Below are positions 3,177 through 31,041 of a DNA stretch of 32,000 nucleotides, in pieces. The stretch is from positions 540,001-572,000 of the forward strand of contig JALDRA010000001.1 in NCBI GenBank assembly GCA_031316235.1. The letters run 5' to 3'. The stretch is from Candidatus Scalindua sp. Lineage in GTDB: Bacteria; Planctomycetota; Brocadiia; Brocadiales; Scalinduaceae. Below the pieces are notes generated by a model. The model was given only the letters and a program-made list of their open reading frames with translations, did no database searches and was not told the DNA's origin. The stretch's first letter is position 1, and each line of letters opens with the position of its first letter. Position numbers and translations under genes: made by a program.

Positions 3177-3395
3177 ATGCGAACAACATTAAACATTGAC
3201 GACCTTTTGATGAAAAGGCTACTTGAGGTCACTCATGAGACATCAAAAACCAGGGCCATCACTATTGCCATCGAAGAATTCCTCAAAAAAAAACAAATTA
3301 AAAAAATCCTCTCCTACCAGGGCACATTAGACATAGAAAACAACTGGCAGCAATTAGAGATAGAAGAACTAAAGGAATATGAAGACAAAAAATAA
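3177..3395 (+). CDS. vapB: type II antitoxin, VapB-like (DUF2191/RHH-type)
   Basis: The N-terminus MRTTLNIDDLLMKRLLEVT..SKTRAITIAIEEFL is typical of VapB/DUF2191 antitoxins. GGAGA lies 6 nt upstream of the ATG. The gene overlaps the downstream PIN gene by 17 nt. Confidence 0.8.
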   Translation: MRTTLNIDDLLMKRLLEVTHETSKTRAITIAIEEFLKKKQIKKILSYQGTLDIENNWQQLEIEELKEYEDKK

Positions 3396-3771
3396 GCCAA
3401 AAGTTATTGCAGATACCTGTATCTGGGTCGAATTCTTTCGTACAAAATCAAAAATCTCAAACTGCCTTAGAGACCTAATCTCTAATAACCTTGTATCTGG
3501 TGTTGGGATAATCATTGCTGAACTCCTACAAGGTATTAAGACAAATAAAGAACGTGAAATCATAATAGATATTTTCAATACCATTGAATATCTTGAAATA
3601 ACAAAAGATATCTGGATAGAATCTGGAACGCTTGCCAGAAAACTTCGTTCAATGGGAAAGACAATTCCGCTTTCTGACATTACTATTGCTTGTTGTGCAA
3701 AGAAATATCAGTATAAAATCTTTACCATTGACAAACACTTTCACGCTATCCCTGATATAAAAATTATGTGA
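3379..3771 (+). CDS. vapC: PIN-domain toxin, VapC-like
   Basis: 130 aa with PIN acidic residues in the expected order (IADT.., ..AELL.., ..LSDI.., ..FTIDKHF) and the typical vapBC overlap architecture. Confidence 0.8.
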   Translation: MKTKNKPKVIADTCIWVEFFRTKSKISNCLRDLISNNLVSGVGIIIAELLQGIKTNKEREIIIDIFNTIEYLEITKDIWIESGTLARKLRSMGKTIPLSDITIACCAKKYQYKIFTIDKHFHAIPDIKIM

Positions 3772-3853
3772 ATCATTCTTGAATCGTAAAACTTAAGCTA
3801 CTACCAAACCTTTAATCTTCAATCAGCAAAAGAATTGCATGTGCTTTTCTTTT

Positions 3854-3960
3854 AAGTTGTCAGTTGTCATAAAGGGTACAGTTGTCAGATATCGATTTGA
3901 AACATGCCTTTTTTTTCTGCACCCTGCAAACTGTACCCTGTACCCTTCTTTCCTGCCCCC
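3854..3960 (+). repeat. R3 repeat, copy a (TGTCAG-rich head plus pyrimidine-rich ~35-bp units)
   Basis: aagttgtcagtt..ttgtcag..tttttttctgc.ccctg...actg..ccctgtacccttctttcctgccccc aligns by eye with 4469-4570. A related inverted segment lies at about 258-330. Confidence 0.65.
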
Positions 3961-3968
3961 TTCTATTC

Positions 3969-3996
3969 TTGACATTCAAAGCATAATTTATATAAT
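3969..3996 (+). promoter_or_regulatory. consensus sigma70-like promoter at the end of R3a
   Basis: TTGACA (3969-3974), 16 nt spacer, TATAAT (3991-3996). The predicted transcription start falls at about 4003-4004, on the ATG at 4004. Confidence 0.5.
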
Positions 3997-4003
3997 GAAT
4001 CGC

Positions 4004-4360
4004 ATGCCAATAACCGAAGAATTAAAAAATCTTAAAAAATTTGAATCTGTTGGGTTTACACACGAACAGGCCGAGGCCCTTGCAGAAACCATTGAACAGG
4101 CACAAGCCGCCAGTCAGGAAGACCTTAAGAGTTTTATCCGCACGGAACTCGCAGATCTTGCTAAAAATTTTGATAGTAAATTAAATGCTCTCCAAAAAGA
4201 TTTTGAAGGTAAATTCATAATCCAGCAAAAAGATTTTGATGGTAAATTAAACGGCCTGGAAGCTCGATTAATAGCTTCGCAAAAAGACCTTCTCATTAAG
4301 ATTTTTGGTATTATAGTAGGAACCGTTGGTATAGCAGTTACCATATTAAAACTGTTCTAA
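4004..4360 (+). CDS. DUF1640-like coiled-coil protein with C-terminal TM helix (possibly leaderless mRNA)
   Basis: FESVGFTHEQAEALAETIEQA followed by coiled-coil repeats and a C-terminal hydrophobic helix (IFGIIVGTVGIAVTILKLF) fits the DUF1640 family. Neither the ATG at 4004 nor the one at 3995 has an SD. The longer ORF-track start (3839) lies inside the R3 repeat and upstream of the promoter. Confidence 0.65.
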   Translation: MPITEELKNLKKFESVGFTHEQAEALAETIEQAQAASQEDLKSFIRTELADLAKNFDSKLNALQKDFEGKFIIQQKDFDGKLNGLEARLIASQKDLLIKIFGIIVGTVGIAVTILKLF

Positions 4361-4851: not shown

Positions 4852-6106
4852 ATGTCAAAGTCAAACGATCAAGAAATACTATCAATAGTAAACCCTGTAT
4901 GTTGTGGTTTGGATGTACATAAAGCAAAGATATCTGCATGCCTCATAACGGTAGATAATGAAGGAAAGCAGCAGTATGAGATCATGGAGTATTCAACCTT
5001 TACCGGGAATTGTTAAAGCTTCGCGACTGGTTAGGTGAAAATTCCTGTCCCATAGTGGCAATGGAAAGTACCGGAGTATATTGTGTCGTCCGGTGCACAA
5101 TGTCCTTGAAGGGTACATGGAAGTTATATTGGTAAACGCCAGGCATGTGAAGAATTTACCGGGACGTAAGACAGATATTTCTGATAGTAAGTGGCTAGCA
5201 AGTCTGTTACGTATGGGGCTACTCAAAGGGAGTTATATTCCCGGGAAAGAGCTTCGTCAATGCAGGGAACTGGTAATTCTCAGAAAGAAGTACACGGAGT
5301 CTTTGGGTGATTATAAAAGGCGTGTACATAAGGTGTTTGAAACGGCAAACATAAAGATAGACTCAGTAGTTTCCGATTTGTTTGGTGTAACGGGCAGGAA
5401 TTTGATTGCTCTATTATGTACAAAAGAGAAGATAACCCGCACTGAAGTGGAAGAGTGTGTCAGGGGTAGTCTCAAAGATAAAGTAGCGGAGCTTTATCAG
5501 AGTATTCAGGGTTTTTTTGAGTCTCATCATCGTTTTGAGATTACGCTGCTTATGAAGACGGTTGGACATCTTGAGTCAACGATAATGGAAATATCCCAAC
5601 AGCTTGATGATATGACCAGATGTCACAAAGAGTTACTGGACCATCTTGATGAGATACCGGGAATAAACAAAAGTGGAGCCCAATCGATTATCAGCTTTGT
5701 AGGAACCACTATGAAAGAATTCAAGAGCGATTCCCATTTGGTTTCCTGGGGAGGACTGTGTCCGGGGAATAATGAAAGTGCTGGTAAGAGGAAAAGCGGT
5801 AGAAGTCCAGTGGTAAAAAACCCGTTTAAGACGCATATGATCGAGCTTTCCTGGGCAGCTATCAAGAAAAAAGGCTCGTATTATAAGGATAAGTATTATC
5901 GTCTTAAAGCCAGGCGTGGTGCAAAGAAGGCTATTGTTGCAATAGCCAATAGAATAACACGGGCAATATACCACATCATAAAATATGGTGTATCGTATGT
6001 CGAATTAGGGGAGAATTACCTTTCAGCGAGGAATAAAACAACGAGTTTGAGTTGTTTACAAAAACAGGCGAAGTTACATGGATTCGAGTTAATAACACAA
6101 AAGTAA
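4852..6106 (+). pseudogene. IS110-family transposase (DEDD-type), disrupted by two frameshifts
   Basis: The ATG at 4852 (AGGAGA 4841-4846) opens MSKSNDQEILSIVNPVCCGLDVHKAKI..TFTG and then hits a stop at 5014. The next frame continues ELLKLRDWLGENSCPIVAMESTGVY. The ORF-track frame (5081-6106) continues RPVHNVLEG..LVNARHVKNLPGRKTD..SKWLA. The inferred lesions are a 1-nt loss in the G-run near 5005-5007 and a 2-nt gain in tgtgt near 5078-5082. Confidence 0.8.
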
Positions 6107-6381
6107 TGATACGAGAGAAATATCTCTGAAGCAAGAGGATGCGAGTAATCTCAAATTCTATGAGCCACCAATAAGAGTTTGTTTCACCTGCCCGACTATG
6201 GCTTTCAGGCGGGGAGGAAGGAATATTTTACAAAGAAAAGGAAATTCCTATTCTTTTTTAAGTGGAATAGGTAGATAGGATCGCTATTGACTCGCAGTAA
6301 TATTTGTTTCATATAAGTTTTATATGAAACAGCCCCTTTAGCTTCTAAATCATACCCGTCATTAGAACGATGACAGAGCAC

Positions 6382-7609
6382 TAGTGTCACGTCAATCATC
6401 AAGTGTCGGGTAAAGTTTAGATAATCTTATCCTGGCATCAATCGTAGTAAACTGCCAGTTAGCCTTTGATTTCTTATTGTTTCTAAATTTCTGCCATGAC
6501 TGTACTTCTTTTTTTATCTTTGTAATATTATCAATCCGCCTGTTTAAACACTGTCCAGCAAGTACATTCAACTCGATTTCTGCCATATTTAACCAGCTAC
6601 CATGCTTTGGGGTGTAGACAAACTCAAATTTATCTAAAATTTCCTTTGCTTTATCCGGCACAAACGTTTCATACAACGATCCAGCATCATGAGTATTCAA
6701 GTTGTCCATTACTAATGTTATTTTGTTCGCATGACCATATGTATTAACAACGTCTTCCAGAAAATAGGACCAATCTTGTTTAGTTCTTCTTTCTGTTATT
6801 TTTACTATACGTTTCCCGGCCAATGGTTCAAAGGCCAGAAAAATATTACACACTCCACAACGCTTATATTCATAGTCATACTTAGCCGGTTGCCCTGGTG
6901 AAGCAGAAATTGGCATCTTTGTCTCTGATATAAGTTGCTTTGGTGACTCGTCCATACATATTACTGGATACTTAGCGTCATATGGACGTTTGTATACATC
7001 CAGCACCATTTCCATGTTAGCGACAAAACTGCCGTTTTCTTTTGGCGGTATTACCCAACCTTTTCGTTGCCAGGGCTTAATTTCGTTTTTTTTTTTTAAT
7101 ATACGGCGTATTGTTTCGTGGGAAATTTTGTCAGTATATTCAAGTTCTACTACCTTGTCTGCTAATAATCGCAGAGACCATCTTGCAAAACCTTCTGGCG
7201 GCTCGCTACAACTTAACGCTACCAGGTGGGCTTCAAAGTCACCATCTGTCTTCTTTTCATATACTCGATTGCCTTTGCGTCCATTAAGCGCAACTTCAAA
7301 ACCTTCTTCAACAAATCTTTTCTTTACCCGGTCAATTTTCTTCATGCTTATTTTAAGAACACGGGCAATTTCAACGTTGGTCGAACGTTTGCCCTGATAC
7401 TCACCCTGGTCGCAAGCTAATAATAGTAATGCATTGAGTATCTTTTGGGATCTATGCATCCCTTTAGACGTTAAAGCAACAAGCCTGTTACGTTCATCGC
7501 AATCAAGAGTTACTATGTATTTCTTCATAATCTAAATCTCCCGAAAAAATTTAATTATGAAGATATTATAATCTATTATATACGACATTACAAGCTTGAC
7601 GTGACACTA
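6382..7609 (-). mobile_element. IS630-family insertion sequence, apparently intact
   Basis: Perfect 12-bp terminal inverted repeats gtgtcacgtcaa (6384-6395) and ttgacgtgacac (7596-7607). Each is flanked by TA (6382-83, 7608-09) within c-TA-g, which is the CTAG target with TA duplication typical of IS630. Confidence 0.9.
6392..7528 (-). CDS. IS630-family DDE transposase (378 aa)
   Basis: Full-length ORF with an N-terminal HTH region, DDE-type motifs (..ICMDESP.., ..LVMDNLNTH.., ..NMAEIELN..) and an ATG start. Confidence 0.9.
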   Translation of the reverse strand: MKKYIVTLDCDERNRLVALTSKGMHRSQKILNALLLLACDQGEYQGKRSTNVEIARVLKISMKKIDRVKKRFVEEGFEVALNGRKGNRVYEKKTDGDFEAHLVALSCSEPPEGFARWSLRLLADKVVELEYTDKISHETIRRILKKKNEIKPWQRKGWVIPPKENGSFVANMEMVLDVYKRPYDAKYPVICMDESPKQLISETKMPISASPGQPAKYDYEYKRCGVCNIFLAFEPLAGKRIVKITERRTKQDWSYFLEDVVNTYGHANKITLVMDNLNTHDAGSLYETFVPDKAKEILDKFEFVYTPKHGSWLNMAEIELNVLAGQCLNRRIDNITKIKKEVQSWQKFRNNKKSKANWQFTTIDARIRLSKLYPTLDD

Positions 7610-7622
7610 GCATGAAATTATG

Positions 7623-9629
7623 TTAACTAAAAATGGCGTCACAAGCCATATCATCCGACCAACCTGACCAACTACTACCTCTCCAAGTGTTGTGCCACAA
7701 ACGTTTATCATATCCTACTGCAAACAAGTCAATACTGTTTGTACGTTTAGACACAGCTGCAGGTCCAGATAGAAATTTTCCGATACCATTATCTGTATCC
7801 GCTGACCACCCTGACCACTTAAAACCGTCAAAGAAACTGTGATACATTTTATGATCTTCACCCAAAGCAAAAACATCTATACGTCCAGCTACCCATGAAA
7901 CGGCCGCAGGAGCTGAAACAAAGGTACCTTCGCCTGGACCAGTCGACCATGAAGACCATATATTTTCTTCCAAACTTGCGTGATAAATTTTACGGTCATC
8001 TCCAAGCGCAAAAACATGTAATCGATCTTTATCCCAAAACGTAGCTGCTGGTGTGGAAATAAATTCACCATCCGAAATATTAGATTCAAGCATTGACCAT
8101 TCTGATCCATTCCATTGGAGATAACGCATATGTCTCGTTAACAAATCAACATAGAATACTTTCAATCTGTTCTCTGCAGTTGCAACGGTGGCAGGACCGT
8201 ACATTGAGTAGTTATCTCCAAGGTGTTCCCAATCTGTCCATTCAGAATTTTCCCACGTACATTGCCAAATGCGATTATCATCTCCTAGAGCGAATACATC
8301 TAATCGATCGTTATTCCAAGATGAAGTTGCCGCCCCTGAAGAAAACGTCGCATGGCTACCCCGAGGCGTCCAGCCAATAAAACTATTATTACTGATCCAT
8401 GTCTGATACATTCTACGATCCATACCTCGCATAAAAACATCTATGCGTTCAATACTTGCTTCATGTCCAGGTAGTCCTAAGGCTAACGGCCTCTTCCAAG
8501 CTACTGCACCAACATTTGGAGGAACCATCAAATTTGTCAGTGGCTTTTCACCAAAAACCTCCCAATCATAAAGAAGCTTGTAACGGCCACCATCAGCTTG
8601 GTCTCCCTGCCATGCTAGGTACTTGTTTTTGGTATTTGTAACACCATTCCAAGTAGAGTAAGGGGTTGGAAGTTGTAATTCGACTACTTTCGCGTCAAAA
8701 ATTTCATCTTTATTTTGACCGAGAAACCAGTCTTGAATTAACGTGATGAGGGCACCAACTATAGCCCCCACAATCGCCCCAATAGCTGCTCCTAGCAACG
8801 TTCCAAGGCCTGGAAACGTATTGCCGATAGATCCTCCTATGGTTGCACCCAGAATAGTCGCAGTTACCCATGTAGCTATTTTTTCCTCTATAAGTGGTTT
8901 TATTTCTTCCAATAATTTTACAACGAATTCGGAGAATCCCACATCGTCATGTTCTGCCAGTACTACTATAACAGCAAAACTACGAGGCCAATATAGAGGA
9001 TCTCTAGACCCATTGAGGGTTACAATGTCTGGGAAATTAAAAGATTTTAAATTTTTTGGTGGACTATAGATTTTGTTCTCACCAGCATCAAAATCATCAC
9101 TTACAGTGAAGATGTTAATTTTCTTAGCAATACCAACCGAGTCTATAGAAATACCACTCATTTGAATATGGTCGGCACCTATTTCGTCGGTTTCCTCAAT
9201 GCACTCGACTCTATGTACCCTAAAGCGGATACCTTCGAAACCAGTAGTTTGTTCAGGAAGTAGTGCCATTTTTGGTAAAGGTAATTGGTCTAACGAAATA
9301 TCTCTAGACTCTGAAAGAGCTCTAGCTTGTTCTGTAACAGATAAATCCGAGCGTAAATTTACACCAGCTAACCGACCATATTTAGATTCGCGCATCTGCG
9401 GTGTTATATTTCTAAGCGTATTAACCATCGACTGTTGTTTAGAAGTAGGTAGTTGAATCAAGCGTTTATAAAATATTTCTTCTAGTGTGTTATTCGAGCT
9501 GGACATTGGATGTGAATTAGGTTGATCAAAATGCTGTATGGCTTTATCTGCAGACAAATTCACAGTATTCACCACATAATCAGTAATTTCCTTTAACAAT
9601 CGATCATCTAAACCATTTATATGCGACAT
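7623..9629 (-). CDS. 668-aa protein: unknown N-domain, glycine-zipper hydrophobic hairpin, 6-blade PLL/AAL-type (lectin-like) beta-propeller
   Basis: GAAGGAG RBS and an ATG start; no signal peptide. Residues ~252-298 read WVTATILGATIGGSIGNTFPGLGTLLGAAIGAIVGAIVGALITLI. Residues ~385-668 carry six repeats of R[IL]DVF[AV]xG.D..[IMLY][WY]H..W....WS.W..(L)G..F.S.PAAVSW. Confidence 0.85.
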   Translation of the reverse strand: MSHINGLDDRLLKEITDYVVNTVNLSADKAIQHFDQPNSHPMSSSNNTLEEIFYKRLIQLPTSKQQSMVNTLRNITPQMRESKYGRLAGVNLRSDLSVTEQARALSESRDISLDQLPLPKMALLPEQTTGFEGIRFRVHRVECIEETDEIGADHIQMSGISIDSVGIAKKINIFTVSDDFDAGENKIYSPPKNLKSFNFPDIVTLNGSRDPLYWPRSFAVIVVLAEHDDVGFSEFVVKLLEEIKPLIEEKIATWVTATILGATIGGSIGNTFPGLGTLLGAAIGAIVGAIVGALITLIQDWFLGQNKDEIFDAKVVELQLPTPYSTWNGVTNTKNKYLAWQGDQADGGRYKLLYDWEVFGEKPLTNLMVPPNVGAVAWKRPLALGLPGHEASIERIDVFMRGMDRRMYQTWISNNSFIGWTPRGSHATFSSGAATSSWNNDRLDVFALGDDNRIWQCTWENSEWTDWEHLGDNYSMYGPATVATAENRLKVFYVDLLTRHMRYLQWNGSEWSMLESNISDGEFISTPAATFWDKDRLHVFALGDDRKIYHASLEENIWSSWSTGPGEGTFVSAPAAVSWVAGRIDVFALGEDHKMYHSFFDGFKWSGWSADTDNGIGKFLSGPAAVSKRTNSIDLFAVGYDKRLWHNTWRGSSWSGWSDDMACDAIFS

Positions 9630-10051
9630 CAGCTTACTCCTTCTCGTTTTTTAGGAACTATCTCATAGAATTTCTTGAATTTATTGGGATTATATTCCCC
9701 GTTACTTGTGGCGTTTAAAATGTATTGCTATGAAATATTTGATTTCGGACAATTTGTATTAATGCCTCCCCTCATCTGTTTGCGATGGGGATGTTTATTG
9801 TAAGATTCGACGAGTGCTCCTATTCTTTTTTGTGTAGCCGAATGAGTCAGGACCGATCCCAGTCGATCATTTGAATTGTTGATTCGCTCATACCATTCAC
9901 AGCCAAAAATGGCTTTTTAAGCACAATTAAAATAATCTCCCTAATATTTATTCGTGAATTAACTTATCATACTGTACCCCCTATGTCAATATGAAAACTG
10001 GAGTGTGCGGCCGAGCAAGATCGATAATTCCAGTAGGTGAAAGATCCGAAT

Positions 10052-10341
10052 AAAGGGGTCCATTCTACATAACAGAAATAAAGTATGCTCGCTCCATGAC
10101 ACGTCCACTAAGAATAGAATATCCAGGTGTGTGGTATCACGCAATGAACAGAAGATTAAATCAGTACTCCATATTTTTGCGTAATTCTGATTATGAACTT
10201 TTTATACTCATTTCATAATCGTTTTCGGATAAAATCCGAGTAAAAGCGGAGCGAGTAAAGTCCTCGGCACTTTTTGTCCGGGGATACCTTCACCAAGATT
10301 TGGTTTCCGGTAATACCGAAAACCAAATCGGTTTTAGTATA
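10052..10341 (+). repeat. ~290-bp long direct repeat, copy 1 (RAYT 5' fragment plus R1 copy b at 10203-10341)
   Basis: Near-identical by eye to 12382-12681, with a few substitutions and two 5-nt indels near the start. Homology stops exactly at the R1 3' end (agtata). Confidence 0.85.
10096..10218 (+). pseudogene. RAYT / IS200-like Y1 transposase gene, 5' fragment (40 codons)
   Basis: It translates to MTRPLRIEYPGVWYHAMNRRLNQYSIFLRNSDYELF, matching the N-terminus of REP-associated tyrosine transposases (..RPLRIE.PG..YH...RG......IF.DD.DR..F). It then runs into R1 and stops. Confidence 0.7.
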
Positions 10342-10489: not shown

Positions 10490-11888
10490 CTACAGCGACA
10501 CTTTTTTTCTCAGCTTCCGCTGCAATTTTTTGAATTCCTTTATTTTTGTTTTTCTATGAGAACGATAAGCACTATAATTCCTTTTCTGGTGGTACCTGAT
10601 AAGTTCAATTACGTATTTTTTATCAAGTGGAATAACCGGCAGAACGGCCTCCAACAGCATACGAGCTTGGGGTAAAGTCAGAGCCGGTGTTTTTTTTTAA
10701 TACTCCGCGTATTCTAAGCAAAAATAATTGTGCCAAAAAAACAAACGTCATATGCCTATGCCAGGCGGGCCAGGAACGATGTTCATAATCTGCCATGCCT
10801 AATTCGCTTTTGCCTTCTTGAAATGATTGCTCGACAGGCCAGCGTAATACACATACACGTATCATTTCTTCAAGTGCCGTCTCTGCCGGAGCATTGCTGA
10901 GGCAGTACTTTATTTCATGTGTTTTAGGATCTTTTCTTAAAAACAGCCATCTTTCATTCTCCGCTGTACTGTCATCGCCTGCAAACACCCTGGTTCGAGC
11001 GACAAATCCATAAATTGGCCCTTTTGCTCCTTCAGCAAGTTGGGCCAGCTTCCACTTTACATTTCCGTCCTGTGCTATATCGGATACTTTTCTTTCAACT
11101 CTCTTCCGGCAAGCTTCACCATCTTGCGTGCTCACTAACACTTTCCGATTCTTTGCTATATCAGCTAGATAAAAAACCTGTGGAGGAAGATTTTCTAAAA
11201 AATCAGGGCTATTGCCAAATATACTATCACACGTTATCCAACGAAATGGGAACAGCCCACCCGTACTCAATTCAGCAATCATCTCAACGGCAAGTTCCGG
11301 TTTCTTCCTGAATACCAAATTTTTAGGCACTTTGCATCTTTCACGTCTCTCTTTATACTCAGGGTCAAACCACTTTTCAGGCATATACAGCCGGCGGTCT
11401 ATCAATCCATACCCCTTCGTACTCGTATATGCCACGTACACTCCAGACTGACAATTTTCTATTTTACCAAGACGGCCACAATATTGACGAGCGACTCCCA
11501 CCGATTCCTTTCCTTTTTTCACCACTTCTCTACTATCAAGACTGAGTACTCCATCAGCTTCGGACAATAGTTTTGAGAGTTCCTCTTTGTGCCGTGAAGC
11601 GATAAATTCTCCATCCCACTTGTACTCTCCCATGAACCGTTGCAAGCTTCGTACTGTATCTTTACCTCGGAGTCGAAGTGCTATTGGCTCTATCGATTTA
11701 CGATCAAGCTTACTTAATAAACCCTGCAAATAGCACAAGCTCAAATCTTTCTGCTCTTTCCGTCTGAATCCCTCCTCAAACAATGCGTGATACTTCTCCA
11801 ACTCTGTTGCAAGCTTTCCGATATCGCTTGCACTCAATTCAACTCCGGGTTCTACTTCAGGACTCCAGTCCGGGGGACGTACTATCAT
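10490..11888 (-). pseudogene. IS701-family (IS4-like DDE) transposase with a +1 frame break in an A9 run
   Basis: Signature QYCGRLGKIENCQSGVYVAY plus YLQGLL and HRSWPAWHRH. The likely start is the ATG at 11888 (AAGGAG 7 nt upstream); the ORF-track TTG at 12074 has no RBS. After the A9 run (plus T9 at 10690-10698) the open frame ends at 10623. The +1 frame continues TPALTLPQARMLLEAVLPVIPLDKKYVIELIRYHQKRNYSAYRSHRK.. to a stop at 10490, which is a typical family C-terminus. Confidence 0.8.
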
Positions 11889-12137
11889 ACTGCTTCTCCT
11901 TTCCAATGGCAGATTGCTGTAAGGTCTGTTTGAAAGGAGATACTTTCGGGTAAGTAATGGTTCTGTTTTGTCTTGTTTTATATTTCGCCTGCCTTGGGTG
12001 TCTAATACATAGGTAAAAGTAAAGGGGTCAAATCTGCCGATGGCTTTGCTGTAACTATTTTTTTGTTTCGTCAACTTGTTTTTTTAGTTTTTTGTTACTA
12101 TCCAGACGAAACTTCATTCTATCAATTTGCTAATTTA

Positions 12138-12347
12138 TCAGGCATATATTAAACGCCCCTTCGCTTCCGGAATTGGACGATTTAACTCTTTTGCCGTGTC
12201 TATCCATTCTTGTATAATAACTTCGACATTAGAGAGCGCCTCCTGGTATGTATTACCGTCTGACATACATCCTGGTAATTCCGGAACTTCTGCAATAAAA
12301 GCATTATCTTCATTACTCCAATAAATTATAATTTCATACTTACTCAT
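12138..12347 (-). CDS. hicB: HicB-family antitoxin (UPF0150), orphan
   Basis: YEIIIYWSNEDNAFIAEVPELPGCMSDGNTYQEALSNVEVIIQEWI is the classic HicB N-domain. GGAGA lies 8 nt upstream of the ATG. There is no hicA ORF on either side. Confidence 0.8.
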   Translation of the reverse strand: MSKYEIIIYWSNEDNAFIAEVPELPGCMSDGNTYQEALSNVEVIIQEWIDTAKELNRPIPEAKGRLIYA

Positions 12348-12874: not shown

Positions 12875-13210
12875 TTACATTTTCTCTTCAATTACCTTTA
12901 GTATTTCCTCGCAAGAGATTTGATAACTTGGCAAGACATTATTACCTTGATGAAGATGATGCGGATATGTTTCAATATGTTTGTGATGTGCGGAGTTGTC
13001 CCACCTGACCAACAACTTGCTATTTGATTCTTGCCAGTGATATGAATAGTGTCGCATATTAACGTCAGAGTATTCCCTTATGTACAGTTCTGTATTATTT
13101 TTCAATGTTGCCTTGATCTTTATGTAGAAACCACCCGCAAAATACTCTAGAACAGGAACTTTAAAGTCTTTGACTATATTACTCTTTTCAAGACACTTTA
13201 TAATCTCCAA
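12875..13210 (-). CDS. DUF6516-like protein (NCBI 'TumE-family toxin' type, name from memory)
   Basis: The motif YSYHWQ....L.RWDN..HH..I.T.PHH.H is present (YSYHWQESNSKLLVRWDNSAHHKHIETYPHHLH). It uses a TTG start with AAGGAG 7 nt upstream and overlaps the upstream partner by 23 nt. Confidence 0.6.
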   Translation of the reverse strand: MEIIKCLEKSNIVKDFKVPVLEYFAGGFYIKIKATLKNNTELYIREYSDVNMRHYSYHWQESNSKLLVRWDNSAHHKHIETYPHHLHQGNNVLPSYQISCEEILKVIEEKM

Positions 13211-16781: not shown

Positions 16782-17462
16782 CTATTTCAAAATATCTTCC
16801 GCTGTTTTATTTATCATCTCTATTCCCTGTTTATCAATATCCGCAAACACTATTGCTGTGCTGAAGCTGGGATGGTTCGCGTTTCTGCGTATGCGGACTA
16901 CTTTCCCGGTACAGTTGATCGTCTGCATTGACCGGGAAATATTCAGCTTGAATTCGAGAATGGAGCCGATTCCTAAATTTTTGTTATAATTGAAATTCAC
17001 ACCCATGGCACTCAAATCATTAATGGCAACCATGTCCCAGCCAGAGAGTATCATCGTATAGCCTTCACATTGGTTAATGCGAAATCGTATCATAAAGGAT
17101 TTTACGATTCTCTGATATCTTCTTTTTTCCGCACCATCAAATGTCTGTATTGTATCTGGTACATACTTTTTATACGTTTCAGGTTTGAGCAGCTTTTCCT
17201 GAGTCCGAGATGCAACCTTTGGAAGCTGGTATAAAATAAAGGTAAACAGTTCTTTAAAATTCTGTACTGCAAAGAATGGAAACTCTGGATCCCTGATCTC
17301 ATTGAGTATCCTCCTGCACTCTATCAGGGTAGTATCAGCATCAATGTTACCGTCTCTGTATCGTTTTAAGTTTTCAACTAACCCTGATATATACGTCAGG
17401 TATTGTTCCCGATTAAATGAAGAGTTTTCTCCCGGTTTCGGCCAAACTCTGTTGCTTATCAT
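16782..17462 (-). CDS. PilZ-domain protein (c-di-GMP receptor type) with an unknown N-domain
   Basis: The C-terminal ~110 aa carries RRYQRI (RxxxR) and NDLSAMG (D/NxSxxG), the two PilZ signature motifs. The preferred start is the ATG at 17462 (AAGGAG 10 nt upstream) rather than the ORF-track start at 17510. Confidence 0.75.
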   Translation of the reverse strand: MISNRVWPKPGENSSFNREQYLTYISGLVENLKRYRDGNIDADTTLIECRRILNEIRDPEFPFFAVQNFKELFTFILYQLPKVASRTQEKLLKPETYKKYVPDTIQTFDGAEKRRYQRIVKSFMIRFRINQCEGYTMILSGWDMVAINDLSAMGVNFNYNKNLGIGSILEFKLNISRSMQTINCTGKVVRIRRNANHPSFSTAIVFADIDKQGIEMINKTAEDILK

Positions 17463-17520
17463 TATGATTAAGCTCCTTTCAAACGAGTCAGTGCCTCCTG
17501 CACAACTCATTCAAAATGGC

Positions 17521-20102: not shown

Positions 20103-20482
20103 GGGAGGTTTTAGCGAATAGTTACTTTAGCCGTTCGTCTTGACTTATACAGGTTTGTCTCAGAGCGTTAATTTCCGGCAGAAAAGAGCCTTATCTTTTA
20201 TGCTCTGCGGCTTCTTTACCTTAGTAGTGCAATAGGCATTACATTTAAACTATAAGTAAACCAATGGACTGCATTTTTATTGTGCAGCAGTCCGACAGCC
20301 TGAACACTGCCAGGCCTCTTCATTCAGGCGGAGAGTCATTCGGACCGCTATTTTAAGAGTATATAGTGCCAAGCCCCCCGTCCGGAAGGGTACGGGCAGG
20401 TGAGGATTGTTCTGGCGGGCAGGATACTTCAACGTGAATGATCAGAAGTGTTGCTCTCGATCAGACAGAAGGAAACCAAAAA

Positions 20483-22582
20483 ATGGCAAGGATTTTTGAA
20501 GGTAAAACAAAAAAAAGACTGGAAACCGACGAAGAAGCTCCATGCATAGTTGCCTGTCCGATACGCCAGGATGCAAGGGACTATATTCAGCTCATTGCAA
20601 GAGAACAATTTAGCAAAGCCATGCAGGTAGTAGCCGAAAGAAATGCGCTTCCATCAGCATGCGGTAGAATCTGTACACATCCATGTGAGACCGAATGCCG
20701 AAGAAATATTCTTGACAAACCCATTGCAATTGCATGGCTTAAGCGTTTTCTCGCAGATGGTAATTTCTCAGATAAAGCCGTTTCCTCTCCTGAAGATGAG
20801 GATAAAACTACAGGACCAGTCAAAATTAACTATCCTGAAAAGATTGCCATTATCGGTTCAGGTCCCGCAGGGTTGGCAGCAGCAAATGATTTATCACTCC
20901 TTGGTTACAGATGCACTGTTTTCGAGGCATTTTCTGAACCCGGAGGAATGCTTCGCCTCGGTGTCCCTACTTACCGTCTACCAAGAAATTTTCTTGATAA
21001 AGACATTGATCTCATCAAAAGACTGGGAGTGGAAATAAGATTTAATACTACGTTCGGAAAAGATATTACGTTTGAGGGATTAAAGAGTGATGGCTACGAT
21101 GTTACGTTTCTGGCTGTAGGGCTGCCGATTACAAGGAGACTGCCGATTGAAGGTGTCGATTCAGATGGGGTCCTGAAGGGGATCACATTTCTCGAAAGTG
21201 AAAACTGCAATGGCAATGCTCGAGTAGGAAAAAAGGTAGTGGTCATTGGCGGCGGAGCTGTTGCGATGGATTGTGCAAGGACCGCCCTCAGGCTGGGACC
21301 GGATGAGGTTCATATCGTGTGCCTAGAGTCAAGGAGCGAAATGCCGACAACTGATTACGAGATTGAAGAGACACTTCATGAGGGGGCAATACTTCATCCA
21401 TCACTGGGGCCGAAGAGAATTCTTGAGACAGATGGGAGAGTGGCCGGCCTTGAAACACTGAAGGTCAGATCCATTTTTGATAACCAGGGAAGATTTAATC
21501 CGTCATTTTACGAAAACAGCGAATCTGTGATAGAGGCGGACACCATTATCCTGGCTATTGGACAATCGTCTGATTTGTCTTTTCTCAAAGATCATAAACT
21601 GATAGGGATTACCAGAGGCGGAACAATATCGGCTGATCCTGAAACCTTACATACCGGTATGCCCGGTGTCTTTGCCGGCGGTGATATAGTGCTGGGAAGA
21701 GGCACCCTTACAATGGGTCTCGGTCACGGTAAGAAGGCGGCTCTGTCTATCCATAATTATCTGAGAAAAACCACCTTAACCGACTATAAGTTCCGGGATA
21801 TAAAACCTCTTGGGGAACTTGCAGAGAAAAGGGTGGATACGATAAAAAAAGAGGCAAGGTGTGAGATGCCTACCCTGCCGCCCAGGACGAGAATCACCCA
21901 TTCTGAAGAGGTTGAGCTGGGTTTTTCCGAGGAGATGGCAGTACGTGAAGCAATGCGTTGCATGAACTGCGGTAATGGTGCAACCGTCTCGGAAGAGGTA
22001 TGTATTGCATGTTTGACCTGTGTCAGGGTGTGCCCTTTTGAGATTCCCAGGATAGAAAAAGATGAAAATTCTGCCTATATTGATGGAGACTGTCAATCAT
22101 GCGGAATCTGTGTTATTGAATGCCCTGCCAGGGCAATTGAGTTTAAGGGTACGTATGAAGACATGGGAAACTCACAGCTTGATGAAGTCTTTAAAGAAGC
22201 TGCTGGTACCGGTTCGATAATCGTAAACTTCTATTGCGGTTGTAACGTAAACCTCTTTGGAGATAAACTTCCTCAAAACATCAAGCACGTAAACATCCTT
22301 GGATTAGGGAAATTAAGCCCTTCACTTATCCTTAAGGCCTTTGAGAAAGGCGCAGATGCAGCACTGGTCACATCCTGCGATGACTCCTGTCATTTCGGTG
22401 ACCACTGTAACAGCTGGGCTGAGAAACGGGTAGAAATTGCACAAGGATTTCTCTCATCGATCGGTTTAGAGAAAGAAAGAATAAAGAGTATGAAACTCTC
22501 TTCCCATAATAGAGAGGAGTATTTACAGACAATAAATCAAATGATTGAAGATATTCGAAATGGATACCCAAAACAACAATAA
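20483..22582 (+). CDS. GltD/NfnB-like NAD(P)H flavin oxidoreductase fused to a 2x[4Fe-4S] ferredoxin domain and an MvhD/FlpD-like domain
   Basis: The N-terminal Cys-rich region (CIVACP..ACGRICTHPCETECRR) is followed by IAIIGSGPAGLAAANDL..EPGGMLRLGVPTYRLP and VVVIGGGAVAMDCA, which is the GltD small-subunit pattern. Next come CIACLTCVRVCP and CQSCGICVIECP (two CxxCxxCxxxCP motifs). The C-terminal ..FYCGCN..ILKAFEKGADAALVTSCDDSCHFGDH..EKRVEIAQGFLSSIGLEKERI matches MvhD/FlpD. The ATG at 20483 is preferred (GAAGGA upstream); the ORF is open from 20438. Confidence 0.8.
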   Translation: MARIFEGKTKKRLETDEEAPCIVACPIRQDARDYIQLIAREQFSKAMQVVAERNALPSACGRICTHPCETECRRNILDKPIAIAWLKRFLADGNFSDKAVSSPEDEDKTTGPVKINYPEKIAIIGSGPAGLAAANDLSLLGYRCTVFEAFSEPGGMLRLGVPTYRLPRNFLDKDIDLIKRLGVEIRFNTTFGKDITFEGLKSDGYDVTFLAVGLPITRRLPIEGVDSDGVLKGITFLESENCNGNARVGKKVVVIGGGAVAMDCARTALRLGPDEVHIVCLESRSEMPTTDYEIEETLHEGAILHPSLGPKRILETDGRVAGLETLKVRSIFDNQGRFNPSFYENSESVIEADTIILAIGQSSDLSFLKDHKLIGITRGGTISADPETLHTGMPGVFAGGDIVLGRGTLTMGLGHGKKAALSIHNYLRKTTLTDYKFRDIKPLGELAEKRVDTIKKEARCEMPTLPPRTRITHSEEVELGFSEEMAVREAMRCMNCGNGATVSEEVCIACLTCVRVCPFEIPRIEKDENSAYIDGDCQSCGICVIECPARAIEFKGTYEDMGNSQLDEVFKEAAGTGSIIVNFYCGCNVNLFGDKLPQNIKHVNILGLGKLSPSLILKAFEKGADAALVTSCDDSCHFGDHCNSWAEKRVEIAQGFLSSIGLEKERIKSMKLSSHNREEYLQTINQMIEDIRNGYPKQQ

Positions 22583-23501
22583 TTTCAAGTCGGGAAGCAA
22601 CCTGGAAAAATTGCTCAGGAGAGGTGAGTTTGTCGTTACAGCAGAACTGGGTCCACCGAGAGGTGCGAGCCGCGAAGCGGTTGAGGAGAAAGCGAAAATC
22701 TTAAAGGGCTTTGCTGACGCCTATAACTTGACGGATTGCCAGACCGCAATGGTTCGGCTTTCCAGTATCGCAAGTGGAGCTATGCTTCTTAACATGGGAA
22801 TGGAACCGATCATACAGATGACGTGCAGAGACAGAAATAGAATAGCGATGCAGAGTGATATTCTTGGAGCAGCAGCCTTAGGTATGAAGAATATCCTCTG
22901 TTTAACAGGAGACCATCAGTGCTTTGGTGATCATCCCGAAGCAAAGGGTGTCTTTGACCTCGATTCAGTCCAACAGCTTAACATGTTCAGGCAGATGAGA
23001 GATGAAAGTACATTTCAGTCGGGAGGAGAGATGAAAGTTGCACCAAGACTGTTCCTTGGCTCTGCAGCCAACCCTTTTGCTGATCCCTTCCGGTTCAGAG
23101 CTCCCAGGCTTTCCAAGAAAATAAAGGCTGGGGCAGATTTTATCCAGACACAGATAATATATAATATGAAAAAATTTGAAGAGTGGATGGGACAGGTACG
23201 CGATATGGGACTCCATGAAAAAGTCTCTATCCTGGCAGGAATCACCCCTATCAAATCACTGGGAATGGCCAGGTATATGAAAAATAATGTTCCAGGATTA
23301 GATGTGCCGGATGAGATCATAAAGCGTTTAGAGGGAGCAAAAGACAAGAAAGCCGAAGGCATAACTATCTGCCTTGAAACGATTGAACAGGTACGGAGGA
23401 TTGAAGGGGTTGCCGGTGTCCATCTCATGGCAATTGAATGGGAAGAGACAATACCCGAGATTGTAGAGAGAGCAGGATTACTCCCGAGGCCAACTCCATG
23501 A
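22560..23501 (+). CDS. metF: methylenetetrahydrofolate reductase, acetogen/anaerobe-type MetF
   Basis: VVTAELGPPRG..NLTDCQTAMVRLSSIA..EPIIQMTCRDRNRIAMQSDILGAAALGMKNILCLTGDH..GDHPEAKGVFDLDSVQQL is the MTHFR (PF02219-type) pattern seen in Moorella-type MetF. The ATG at 22560 overlaps the upstream gene by 23 nt; the TTG at 22545 is an alternative. Confidence 0.85.
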   Translation: MDTQNNNNFKSGSNLEKLLRRGEFVVTAELGPPRGASREAVEEKAKILKGFADAYNLTDCQTAMVRLSSIASGAMLLNMGMEPIIQMTCRDRNRIAMQSDILGAAALGMKNILCLTGDHQCFGDHPEAKGVFDLDSVQQLNMFRQMRDESTFQSGGEMKVAPRLFLGSAANPFADPFRFRAPRLSKKIKAGADFIQTQIIYNMKKFEEWMGQVRDMGLHEKVSILAGITPIKSLGMARYMKNNVPGLDVPDEIIKRLEGAKDKKAEGITICLETIEQVRRIEGVAGVHLMAIEWEETIPEIVERAGLLPRPTP

Positions 23502-24412: not shown

Positions 24413-25816
24413 CTAGTATGCATTTTTGTTTGCCAGCCCCCTCCAGATTGTCAACCACATTATTTCAAAATCAAACAGAAAACTCCAATTTTCTATATAG
24501 TACAAATCATACTCAATCCGCTTTTCAAGAGAGGTATTCCCCCTCCACCCGTTCACCTGGGCCCAACCGGTAATACCGGCCTTCATCTTGTGCCGAAGCA
24601 TATACTTGGGTATCTTATTTCGAAATTGCTCGATAAAGTATGGTCTCTCCGGTCTGGGACCAACAATACTCATCTCTCCCCTGAGCACATTGAGAAACTG
24701 AGGGATTTCATCAAGACTTGTCTTTCTCAGGAAAGAACCAATTACTGTCCTGCGGTTATCGTCCTTTGCCGTCCATACAGGACCGGACTCCTTTTCGGCA
24801 TGAATCCTCATGGTTCGGAATTTCAGCATGGTAAAAATATTTCCATCAAGCCCCATTCGCTCCTGCTTATAGAATACAGGACCCTTCGATGTCAGTTTCG
24901 TCAATAGCGTTATTACCAGCATTAAGGGGGAAGTAACTACTATTATGAAAGCAGACAAGAAGATATCAGTACCTCTCTTTACAATCATATTCCAACCGTA
25001 TAACGGAGAATCTCTTAAACTGATTACCGGCAACCCCTCAAACTCATCAACACCGCTTCTCAACGTGATAAATTCAAAGAGATCCGGTATGACCATGATG
25101 GTAACCATCTCATCAGCAATATTATCAAGAAGTGATTTCAATTCCATATGAGCTTGAAGAGGAAGAGCAATGAAGACTATATCGATCTCATTGGTAATGA
25201 TTACATTACGAATATTCTTAAATGAATCAAGTATGGGGATCCCTTTCAGTGTATCCGATTCCTGCGAAGTGTCCTCCCGTAAAAATCCCCTTATCTTAAT
25301 TCCGAGCTCAGGGTGATTCTGCAGCTTCTCAGTCATCTCCTGAGCCAGATTTCCTGTCCCTACTATGAGGGCATACCGTAAGTTATACCCCTTCTTCCTG
25401 ATATATCGGAAAAATTCACGAAAAAGAATCCTGCTGATACACAATGCAACAATACTTATTATCCAGAAAAAGAGAAACGTGAGCCTCGAGAACTCATATT
25501 GTCTTATGAAAAACGTCAAGGAGATGAGAAGCAGCGTCGAGATTGTCGTTGCCTTGGAGATATCCATTATCTCAGCAATCTTCGTCGATATCCTTCTCGG
25601 TCGATAGAGACCGAATGTCTTGAATACCACACCCCACAGCGGAATAATAATAAGAAGAAGCGAGAGGTAGATGGTAAAAGGAGGAATACCCTTGTATACG
25701 GGAACAATCTGGATGTTAAACCGTAAATAATAGGCCAGGATCCACGAACAGACGAGTGTCAGCCAGTCACAGATCAACACCAGTGTTTCAAAAAATTTAC
25801 TATGCTTTTTTAACAT
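24413..25816 (-). CDS. polyprenyl-phosphate hexose-1-phosphate transferase (WcaJ/EpsB-type priming glycosyltransferase)
   Basis: Four to five N-terminal TM helices and a central Rossmann-like region (ALIVGTGNLAQE). The C-terminal bacterial sugar transferase domain reads ..PVFYKQERMGLDGNIFTMLKFRTM..DDNRRT..G.FLRKTSLDEIPQFLNVLRGEMSIVGPRPERP. Confidence 0.85.
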   Translation of the reverse strand: MLKKHSKFFETLVLICDWLTLVCSWILAYYLRFNIQIVPVYKGIPPFTIYLSLLLIIIPLWGVVFKTFGLYRPRRISTKIAEIMDISKATTISTLLLISLTFFIRQYEFSRLTFLFFWIISIVALCISRILFREFFRYIRKKGYNLRYALIVGTGNLAQEMTEKLQNHPELGIKIRGFLREDTSQESDTLKGIPILDSFKNIRNVIITNEIDIVFIALPLQAHMELKSLLDNIADEMVTIMVIPDLFEFITLRSGVDEFEGLPVISLRDSPLYGWNMIVKRGTDIFLSAFIIVVTSPLMLVITLLTKLTSKGPVFYKQERMGLDGNIFTMLKFRTMRIHAEKESGPVWTAKDDNRRTVIGSFLRKTSLDEIPQFLNVLRGEMSIVGPRPERPYFIEQFRNKIPKYMLRHKMKAGITGWAQVNGWRGNTSLEKRIEYDLYYIENWSFLFDFEIMWLTIWRGLANKNAY

Positions 25817-25821
25817 ATACT

Positions 25822-25987
25822 CAGTAGCTTCCGGTTAGGTTTTTGCATATTTAATTTATTGCCCCAAAACTGTCATTCCCGCATGTTTTTAGCGGGAATC
25901 TATGATGAAACGAGTCTCTGGATACCCGATAAAGACGCTCGGGTATGACAAAAGCCGCCTGCGCAAAAACCTAACCGGACACTCTTG
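25822..25987 (+). mobile_element. R2 MITE, copy b (166 bp, full-length)
   Basis: Termini are cagtagcttccggttaggtttttgc.. and ..gcaaaaacctaaccggacactcttg (17-nt perfect inverted core). Internal hairpins are attcccgc/gcgggaat and tacccga/tcgggta. It is flanked by the perfect 9-bp direct repeat acatatact (25813-25821 and 25988-25996). Confidence 0.85.
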
Positions 25988-25990
25988 ACA

Positions 25991-26090
25991 TATACTCATC
26001 TTACAATGGTTTTTGGATAAAATCCGAGATAAAATTGAGCGAGCATACCTTCACCAAGACCTGGTTTCAGTATACCTGAAACAGAAATTC
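25991..26090 (+). repeat. R1 copy f (3' part divergent), abutting the stop codon of the upstream GT4 gene
   Basis: tatactcatcttacaatggtttttggataaaatccgagataaaattgagcgagcata..caccaagacctggtttcagtatacctgaaac. The distal hairpin is retained with different bases (gtttcag/ctgaaac). The 3' boundary is uncertain. Confidence 0.65.
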
Positions 26091-26099
26091 CCCATACAA

Positions 26100-27266: not shown

Positions 27267-27398
27267 GGTAACAGACCTCCGCCGTTCAGACTCAAGGAAA
27301 CTGAAAAACCGGGAACAACCACTATTGGAATAAGCCTACAAACTGCTCTCATAATAATATAATCCTATACATTTTCATACAAAAAACATCCCTACCGC

Positions 27399-30757: not shown

Positions 30758-31041
30758 AACGATTACCTAAATGGATTAATAATTTTTTTGTTTCAGAATT
30801 TTTCTTTAATCATCAGTAAATATACTTTATCAACACTGCCTACCAAGCAGGAAAAGAGAAGGCTGGTGTATAAAGAGATTTATAGAATCTTACTGCTTAC
30901 AGATACAAAATATCTAAACTGTCGTTTCGGCAATACCGCATGAGGAAATATCAAGAGAAATGGGATGCCTCCCTCAAAAGAATGAGATTAGAATTGAGTA
31001 AAAGTTCAGAGTAAACAGATATCTCACGAAAGAAAAAAACC

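Follow-up and report, generated by a model that had tools for sequence, protein, structure and literature searches.

Introduction

Lectins of the PLL family of Photorhabdus are defined as seven-bladed β-propellers, in which the sugar sites lie between blades and make use of Trp stacking, and which bind L-fucose as well as 6-deoxy and O-methylated sugars (PMC6943638). In PHL, the fucose site is built from Thr194 together with Trp199/Trp214, and a polar site from Arg/Glu/Gln/Trp (PMC5584973). Glycine-zipper proteins of the EsxX type are membrane-depolarising toxins (PMC12744356), and DUF6861 forms the membrane domain at the N-terminus of those polymorphic toxins that end in toxin domains such as Ntox15, TNT, EndoU or CdiA-CT (bioRxiv 10.1101/2022.08.23.504947). 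Here we describe a gene in a 32,000-nt stretch of Candidatus Scalindua sp. (contig JALDRA010000001.1, positions 540,001 to 572,000; hereafter the window), whose 668-aa product, the query, joins an N-terminal unit containing a predicted glycine-zipper hairpin to a C-terminal lectin-type propeller. The query resembles each of these systems in single modules, while it departs from them in how the modules are built and joined. We suggest that it may be a glycan-targeted protein that inserts into membranes.

Results

A conserved N-terminal unit

The initial annotation had described the product as an orphan. This holds for the full-length protein only, as residues 1 to ~365 (the N-unit) belong to a large family. 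The first homologue search returned 11 proteins, nine of which were 368-430 aa long and aligned from query residue 1 to ~365. A later profile search added more members, and an exhaustive HMMER profile search of 1.84 billion representatives gave 4227 matches; the profile in this search held propeller columns too, and the total mixes N-unit and propeller matches. Around 100 of the best 150 matches were N-unit proteins, with E still at ~1e-60 at rank 150. The query aligned over residues 1 to ~365 with more than 100 proteins, and this region matched stand-alone proteins of 350-440 aa from end to end, these proteins finishing at the equivalent of query residues ~362-372. All of the family motifs could be recognised in the query (V-x-C-x3-T...D, E-x-D-x-G-F, the hairpin, D-D and G-G-x-Y). 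As judged by these alignments, the N-unit is a conserved unit common to hundreds of bacterial proteins.

Members of the family come from Myxococcota (Nannocystis), Thiothrix, Thiobacillus and metagenomes, and most of them carry no lectin at all. The only names found for them were "hypothetical protein" and "glycine zipper domain-containing protein", and our literature search found no published description of the family. A word-indexed search with a profile of the N-unit only was overwhelmed by words from the glycine zipper, and the lectin-bearing clade was missing from its output.

Comparison of the full query with Pfam gave matches to glycine-zipper families, all below their cut-offs and all confined to the zipper, and no C2 match. 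DUF6861 scored 26.4 bits against a cut-off of 28, over residues 239-295 of the query and positions 28-84 of the 194 in the hidden Markov model (HMM). Membership of DUF6861 was rejected on the sub-threshold score, the partial coverage, the location of the zipper (residues 253-298) inside a predicted β-sandwich, and the presence of a lectin at the C-terminus. With PADLOC, the query produced just one match, to LeoB at 18 bits and limited to the zipper.

Predicted fold of the N-terminal unit

AlphaFold2 (AF2) modelling of residues 1-388 with the family alignment gave a predicted local distance difference test score (pLDDT) of 70 and a predicted template modelling score (pTM) of 0.67. The full-length model had a mean pLDDT of 72.7, with values of 81-94 in the N-terminal helical domain and of 76-93 in most of the predicted sandwich. 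The two models agree in predicting an eight-stranded β-sandwich, with a helical hairpin inserted between strands 5 and 6 (Table 1). The unplaced domain that had been noted at residues 130-250 is thus not a self-contained domain, corresponding to the first five strands of a sandwich that is completed by residues 305-361. The part with strands 1-5 carries V141, C143, T147, D153, the DDFD loop, P215, E226 and D228, and the part with strands 6-8 carries D308, E309, G348 and Y350.

Modelling and a Foldseek search of the N-terminal regions had been suggested in the initial annotation, and together they reveal what appears to be a C2-like sandwich with an inserted hairpin. The best matches of the N-unit model in the PDB were all C2 domains or C2-containing proteins, as were most of the top 50, and they included E-Syt1 C2A, the C2A domains of dysferlin and myoferlin, PLC-delta1, Munc13 C2B, CAR4 and cPLA2. 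Probabilities reached 0.98 and target-normalised template modelling (TM) scores ~0.5, with E values no better than 0.01. From AF2 and Foldseek, we assign a C2-like fold to the sandwich with moderate confidence.

Other identities for the N-unit were considered. A PLAT/LH2 identity for the sandwich, which was our first guess, was dropped, as Foldseek matched C2 and not PLAT. Nor did the top 50 listed Foldseek matches include any colicin-type or Bcl-2-type bundle in which the hairpin would be buried, and this idea was likewise discarded. A Foldseek search against viral structures (BFVD) gave nothing meaningful. Direct-coupling analysis of 120 sequences (effective number ~112), meant to show whether the hairpin touches the N-terminal helices, yielded mainly artefacts of gaps and phylogeny, and its output was discarded.

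Conservation of the acidic loops

Conservation was computed over 120 non-redundant N-unit members. At least 85% identity was found at 20 positions: V141, C143, T147, D153, G158, G159, G166, G183, P215, E226, D228, G230, G231, F232, G261, G284, D308, D309, G348 and Y350. Among the most constant were D153 (98%), C143, D308 and Y350 (97% each), D228 (95%), E226 (93%) and T147 (91%). The query keeps 17 of the 20, and has S, V and E at the remaining three.

Residues T147, D153, E226, D228, D308 and the D/E at 309 were 88-98% conserved, and are placed in loops β1-β2 and β5-β6. More broadly, the conserved acidic residues sit in loops β1-β2, β3-β4, β5-hairpin, hairpin-β6 and β7-β8. Because the strands of the sandwich run up and down in order, these loops would share one end of it, the end that bears the hairpin; this placement follows from strand order and not from coordinates. 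In topology-II C2 domains, the Ca2+-binding loops 1-3 are β1-β2, β3-β4 and β5-β6, and loop 3 bears D-x-D-x5-D and penetrates the membrane. The arrangement of E226-x-D228, hairpin and D308-E309 in the query parallels the D-x-D-x5-D of C2 loop 3. By this analogy, the acidic end would probably bind Ca2+.

The predicted glycine-zipper hairpin

The hairpin consists of an amphipathic stem, an uncharged glycine-zipper core (residues 253-298) and a PGLG tip. As the initial annotation had noted, the GxxxG/AxxxG pattern and the PGLG turn can be read directly from the translation: A257/G261/G265/G269 are followed by the turn P273-G-L-G276 and then by G276/G280/G284/G288/G292, so that the second helix shows five GxxxG spacings in succession. 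Kyte-Doolittle windows of 19 residues (KD19) exceeded 1.6 only where centred on residues 281-295, with a maximum of 2.38. No N-terminal hydrophobic segment was detected with these windows in the first 250 residues of the query, and the protein therefore has no signal peptide, in agreement with the earlier description.

The insertion is a general feature of the family. It is 55-77 residues long (median 62 aa) and would stand at the position of C2 loop 3. In 111 of 125 members its KD19 exceeds 1.6, and the median number of charges in its core is zero. Since the two ends of the hairpin, in the modelled fold, run into consecutive strands of one β-sandwich, they cannot be on opposite sides of a membrane. 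The AF2 topology thus agrees with the earlier suggestion that a two-helix hairpin would leave the N- and C-terminal domains on the same side.

A charge-free core that is as hydrophobic as a true transmembrane segment is also what would be expected of a resident envelope protein. Here, the hairpin would be a permanent anchor in the cell's own membrane, the sandwich would lie on the surface, and the propeller would bind the cell's own glycans (S-layer, extracellular polymeric substances or peptidoglycan-linked) for organisation, adhesion or sensing, with no killing involved. We consider this role rather unlikely. An extended GxxxG zipper is better suited to self-association and to the making of channels than to plain anchoring, and a hairpin inserted by a protein with no signal peptide would keep the two large domains on the cytoplasmic side, where the lectin has no obvious ligand.

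It is also conceivable that the hairpin never enters a membrane. The query would then be a soluble multivalent lectin, with the N-unit as an oligomerisation scaffold and the hairpin buried at the centre of a bundle of helices. GxxxG motifs pack helices tightly in soluble proteins too, the hairpin stem was modelled with moderate confidence beside a well-predicted helical domain, and the gene has no membrane-protein neighbours and encodes no signal peptide. Known PLL lectins, moreover, act as dimers or tetramers (PMC6943638). A scaffold role would leave unexplained the near-invariant acidic loops at the base of the hairpin. A charge-free Gly/Ala/Ile/Val segment of ~45 residues, with the hydrophobicity seen in the 111 members above, also speaks against burial in a soluble core, and the many lectin-free family members indicate that the N-unit has a function of its own. 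A purely soluble lectin thus seems quite improbable.

The C-terminal propeller

The initial annotation of the C-terminal region as a six-blade lectin-type propeller was borne out by phmmer, Foldseek and the sequence repeats. Six repeats occur with a 47-aa period, with blade motifs at residues 395, 442, 488, 536, 583 and 632, and in the full-length AF2 model the strands of the propeller (pLDDT 60-87) fall into six groups. Judged by the sequence period and the AF2 strand groups, a seventh blade is absent, the six repeats leaving no room for it. The precomputed Pfam match for the product was Beta-prop_PLL (PF26607), and phmmer against PDB sequences gave E values from 5e-28 to 1e-22 for PLL2 (5e-28), PHL (1e-26) and PLL. 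In Foldseek, the PLL family ranked first (E = 1e-16, 24-28% identity, root mean square deviation 2.4-3 Å over ~280 columns of ~345-residue targets), followed by six-bladed AAL-type lectins (E = 1e-11, 12-17% identity). NCBIfam CV39L scored 59.8 bits against a cut-off of 350. On these similarities, the C-terminus is a PLL-type propeller of a six-bladed variant.

The sugar-site residues of PHL were mapped onto the query through the phmmer alignment. The equivalent of Trp199 is aromatic in five of the six blades, that of Trp214, the second Trp of W-x-x-W, is Trp in five, and the Arg is kept in five.

A possible ligand is suggested by another anammox bacterium. The S-layer O-glycan of Kuenenia contains a putative dimethylated deoxyhexose and a methylated N-acetylhexosamine (HexNAc) (PMC5088730), and the sugar classes recognised by PLL lectins (PMC6943638) match them. 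This analogy is suggestive of a ligand for the propeller, and it would also fit the resident envelope protein described above, which would find such sugars on its own cell.

Exchange of sugar-binding modules and export

At least 14 N-unit proteins among the best 150 representative matches carry a C-terminal extension, and the extensions differ in kind. AAL-like propellers were found in P0002 (PF07938, 28.8 bits) and, by inspection or profile position, in P0025, P0026, P0055, P0060, P0065, P0105 and P0112. PLL/DUF346 blades occur in P0075, P0132 and P0135, BTRD1 repeats in P0128 (67 bits), an AbfB trefoil in P0158 (136 bits) and a B_lectin module, at a sub-threshold 29 bits, in P0148. The Thiothrix protein P0167 joins the N-unit to a β module of no assigned family. 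Because carbohydrate-binding modules interchange on a constant N-unit, the comparison argues for the N-unit as effector and the lectin as its address label. The earlier idea of a glycan-targeted protein gains support from this exchange. Promiscuous lectin swapping is, moreover, more usual in targeting domains than in housekeeping envelope proteins, which counts against a resident anchor.

Tat-type signals were present in 29 of 137 sampled members and no signal was found in the other 108; all members with a C-terminal extension were without a signal. The Tat route exports folded proteins, and would suit a substrate whose hydrophobic hairpin is concealed. The signal-bearing clade could equally be anchored on the periplasmic face, as a resident envelope protein would be, although ~80% of the sampled family is signal-less.

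Members of the Tat-signal clade (e.g. P0004, P0006 and P0011-P0021) have a ~30-residue Cys-containing insertion in the β4-β5 loop, which the query and the signal-less clades do not have. The insertion may form disulfides after export. In a separate observation, a 272-aa subtilase (Peptidase_S8) gene was found 16 bp before P0002 on two independent contigs (L006 2005-5088, ENA ERZ25039554; Logan ERR12037368), which may hint at proteolytic activation.

Gene neighbourhoods of the family

The initial annotation had raised a type VI secretion system (T6SS) or Cdz-type link and co-occurrence with an immunity gene, neither of which was found in the 11 homologue neighbourhoods. Linkage to LXG, PAAR or Rhs was also not found in the homologue contexts examined. 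Membership of the T6SS, Cdz or polymorphic toxins was rejected on this gene context and on the sub-threshold, partial DUF6861 match. The query gene is itself monocistronic, and the contexts examined hold no immunity or secretion partner, as would be expected of a resident anchor.

Several homologues adjoin genes of a conflict type. These are TIR_2 (L041), nSTAND1 and CHAT-SIR2 (L005), a TPR_12 protein with a 4-bp overlap (L009), a Ser/Thr kinase that contains TPR (L004) and, in L039, a toxin-antitoxin/integrase island. None of them recurs between loci.

Such neighbours, together with an accessory island around the query that holds PIN, HicB and TumE genes and three insertion sequences (see below), bring to mind an intracellular effector of conflict, abortive infection or programmed death. 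On a trigger such as phage or kin conflict, its hairpin would enter the cell's own membrane and collapse the potential, with the C-terminal module as sensor; most members having no signal peptide is in keeping with this. Such an effector is improbable. No neighbour is common to the loci, the associations could have arisen by chance in gene-rich myxobacterial genomes, and the only PADLOC match is the zipper-confined 18-bit LeoB match already mentioned. A fifth of the sampled members, furthermore, are exported by Tat, and carbohydrate-binding modules are not known as sensors of defence systems.

The gene and its surroundings

The 668-aa open reading frame (ORF) is real and intact. Its stop codon occupies positions 7623-7625, and features of the gene, its product and the adjoining insertion sequences (IS) are collected in Table 1. 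A scan for promoters and terminators gave a number of sites not above chance expectation. Three short Logan contigs were the only other source of the full-length protein. Two of them were aligned and are DNA-identical to the window, L001 spanning the IS630 junction as well; they represent the same strain and are not independent evidence. With six exact peptide patterns and tblastn, no relative of the query protein was found in 185,579 species-representative genomes.

Table 1. Coordinates in the window of the gene, the modules of its product and the adjoining insertion sequences.
Feature	Position (nt)	Strand	Evidence
Whole gene, 668 aa and stop	7623..9629	minus	ORF list, ATG start
Shine-Dalgarno-like GGAG	9637..9640	minus	Sequence reading; ATG 7 nt downstream
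Five-helix N-terminal domain, residues 8-106	9312..9608	minus	AF2 helices 9-35, 49-59, 62-73, 77-89, 98-106; family-aligned from residue 1
Hypervariable linker, residues 107-129	9243..9311	minus	pLDDT <50; 18-102 aa long across 125 members
Predicted sandwich, strands 1-5, residues 130-231	8937..9242	minus	AF2 strands (133-226), Foldseek C2 matches, conservation
Predicted helical hairpin, residues 232-304	8718..8936	minus	AF2 helices 232-262 and 275-303; tip pLDDT <50
Predicted sandwich, strands 6-8, residues 305-361	8547..8717	minus	AF2 strands 311-320, 336-341, 347-359; conservation
Start of flexible linker, residues 362-372	8514..8546	minus	pLDDT <50 over 362-392 (full-length AF2)
Six-bladed PLL-type lectin propeller, residues 373-660	7650..8513	minus	phmmer, PF26607, repeats, Foldseek
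IS630-family element, transposase 6392-7528	6381..7610	minus	DDE_3, HTH_32, HTH_29 domains; terminal inverted repeats
DDE_5 transposase ORF, ~1 kb upstream of the gene, bounds the locus	10623..12074	minus	Pfam DDE_5, 153 bits

The gene has three different insertion sequences in its vicinity, in a span of about 7.5 kb (4852-6106, 6381-7610 and 10490-12074). The initial annotation had placed an IS630 element 12 bp past the stop codon. Its 28-nt terminal inverted repeats (6381-6408 and 7583-7610, 82% complementary) and the junction sequence substantiate this, with 12 nt (7611-7622) between the end of the element and the stop codon of the gene. The element has TA flanks. The "transposase debris" reported upstream proved instead to be a full-length DDE_5 transposase ORF, in a region (10490-12074) that also includes a separate 56-aa tail ORF. 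An IS110-type transposase (4852-6106) is split into two ORFs (4852-5016 and 5081-6106) and is probably frameshifted. Between the DDE_5 transposase and the query gene, a near-perfect, noncoding 16-nt palindrome (10297-10329; 94% complementary, 1-nt loop) may mark either the end of an IS or a terminator-like hairpin.

Genes of the toxin-antitoxin type, encoding a PIN-domain protein, a HicB-like antitoxin and the toxin TumE, are dotted around the locus (3379-3771, 12138-12347 and 12875-13210), which suggests that it is part of an accessory island. An accessory gene among three insertion sequences, with no close copy in the genomes searched, is also not what a resident envelope protein would lead one to expect.

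The same surroundings would fit a decaying remnant, stranded between insertion sequences and with no current function. Mobile elements stand on both sides of the gene (IS630 beyond its stop codon, the DDE_5 transposase upstream and the split IS110 transposase nearby), and the IS630 insertion may have removed the native terminator. Set against this are an intact frame of 668 codons with a good ribosome-binding site, the 17 conserved family positions that are kept, and six blades that are all recognisable. We find decay hardly credible.

Elsewhere in the window, a 173-aa ORF (3839-4360) has no Pfam match and a weak PADLOC match to LeoBC (18 bits). A PilZ-domain protein of the cyclic di-GMP receptor type is encoded at 16782-17510, ~7 kb from the query gene. 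At 20438-23501, a gene for an HdrA/FlpD-like flavoprotein (20438-22582) overlaps that for methylenetetrahydrofolate reductase; the flavoprotein gene has 85% identity to genes in metagenome-assembled genomes (MAGs) of Candidatus Scalinduaceae and 70-78% to those of other Scalindua MAGs, which assigns the window to a Scalindua-like anammox planctomycete. The region 24413-31938 holds a cluster for polysaccharide or glycan biosynthesis, which comprises a Bac_transf sugar transferase, two GT1 glycosyltransferases and a YfhO-like membrane protein. After this cluster comes an F5/8 type C (discoidin) domain protein, and a link of the region to the lectin gene is not established.

Discussion

Proposed mechanism

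Starting from the observed module boundaries, family membership, conservation, exchange of lectins and PLL homology, we propose that the query is a glycan-targeted, membrane-inserting protein, and probably a pore-former. This reading is quite possible, though it falls short of being probable. The protein would be soluble until triggered, and would act through three functional modules. The propeller, on its flexible linker, would bind a sugar on the target surface, probably a 6-deoxy or O-methylated one. The C2-like sandwich would then dock on the bilayer through T147, D153, E226, D228, D308 and E309, with Ca2+ probably bridging to the lipid head groups. The ~70-residue hairpin, at the site of the membrane-penetrating C2 loop 3, would insert its uncharged GxxxG core, and self-association of the glycine faces would produce a leak or a channel. 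As a conjecture, the five-helix N-terminal domain may keep the hairpin covered, or serve as a prodomain, while the protein is water-soluble. We infer membrane insertion, pore formation and an export route, and the target could be a competitor, a grazer or self.

Several observations weigh against this proposal. The C2-like fold comes with the modest Foldseek E values given above; when the sandwiches of six members were freed of their hairpins and compared with Pfam at E ≤10, there was no match to C2, PLAT or any other family, and the family profile matched nothing among PDB sequences. The hairpin tip and both linkers are of low confidence in the AF2 models, and a hairpin hydrophobicity of KD 2.4 would also suit a permanent membrane anchor. 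In the propeller, none of the six blades keeps the fucose-coordinating Thr of PHL (T194), the residues in its place being M, D, L, D, E and Y, and sugar binding is thus a prediction. The query has no signal peptide. Finally, no common neighbour, secretion system (T6SS or Cdz-like) or recurring small immunity-like gene was found in the 11 homologue neighbourhoods, and the window around the query is likewise without a secretion system or immunity gene; with no immunity gene, a self-harming pore-former therefore needs another safeguard. The toxin idea of the initial annotation is a plausible hypothesis, to which lectin swapping adds weight, but it comes without the immunity and secretion context usual for interbacterial toxins. 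The alternative named there, a surface-sensing membrane protein, is compatible with the observations as well.

A more specific version of the proposal may be formulated, which we regard as speculative and unlikely to hold in full. The N-unit would represent an undescribed class of Ca2+-triggered α-helical pore formers, in which a zipper hairpin replaces C2 loop 3 and interchangeable lectins steer the protein to its target. The propeller of the query would read methylated deoxyhexose on S-layer O-glycans, and the protein would serve as a bacteriocin against anammox competitors or glycan-coated neighbours.

Significance

If the proposed mechanism is true, it would be a new and widespread structural route to glycan-targeted membrane attack, combining a C2-like docking domain, a built-in zipper hairpin and plug-in lectins. 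It would also be among the few bacterial cases of C2-type Ca2+ and lipid docking. The family, with hundreds of members in Planctomycetota, Myxococcota and Proteobacteria, would then supply candidates for bacteriocins, or for toxins against grazers, whose sugar specificity could be programmed. For anammox bacteria, which are slow-growing and uncultured organisms of importance in wastewater treatment and the marine nitrogen cycle, the protein would open a testable way into strain competition or into the organisation of the cell surface. Even if the hairpin is a resident anchor, a new domain-family entry would be justified, and the misleading weak labels of DUF6861 and glycine zipper would be corrected.

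Comparison with known systems

The propeller is closest to the PLL/PHL lectins of Photorhabdus (PF26607; DUF346 repeats; BP39L/CV39L), with which it shares the blade signature R-x-D/E-V-F...G-x-D...W/Y-H...W-x-x-W. Those lectins are seven-bladed and free-standing, whereas the query has six blades behind a 370-residue unit, and the Thr of the fucose site is replaced in every blade. In the number of blades the query resembles the AAL-type fucose lectins (Aleuria aurantia lectin, AFL and RSL), and the sister proteins P0002 and P0025 use an AAL-like propeller, but the blades of the query are nearer in sequence to PLL.

With C2 domains (synaptotagmin/E-Syt, ferlins, PLC-delta1, cPLA2 and the perforin C2), the query shares a predicted eight-stranded sandwich and a cluster of acidic loops at what would be one end. 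It differs from them in belonging to a bacterial family, in having no detectable sequence similarity and in bearing a hydrophobic hairpin in the position of loop 3, and its binding of Ca2+ and lipid is a prediction.

Among glycine-zipper toxins (TspA/EsxX from type VII secretion (T7SS), Tse4/Ssp6 of the T6SS, CdzC/CdzD and the VacA N-terminus), the shared feature is GxxxGxxxG in an uncharged helical segment. Their expected action, which is self-association into an ion-conducting lesion, may be likened to that proposed for the query. Homology was not detected, however, and the zipper of the query lies inside a folded sandwich and not at a terminus, with no linkage to secretion and no immunity gene in the contexts examined. 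The resemblance to DUF6861 is a weak local match over an amphipathic helix followed by a glycine zipper, and none of the C-terminal toxin domains of DUF6861 proteins (Ntox15, TNT, EndoU and CdiA-CT) is present in the query.

The proposed logic, in which a lectin delivers a membrane-active or killing module, is that of lectin-bearing cytolysins and bacteriocins (Vibrio cholerae cytolysin, CEL-III and LSL; the LlpA-type MMBL proteins). A B_lectin-like module is even present in P0148, a relative of the query. Such cytolysins form β-barrel pores and LlpA has no membrane-insertion module, and none of them is homologous to the N-unit. Lectin-addressed membrane-active proteins are a known kind, and what is new here is an undescribed domain family. 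By analogy, the best-supported mechanism is one in which the query would function like the glycine-zipper toxins and the lectin-guided cytolysins, while being a member of neither group.

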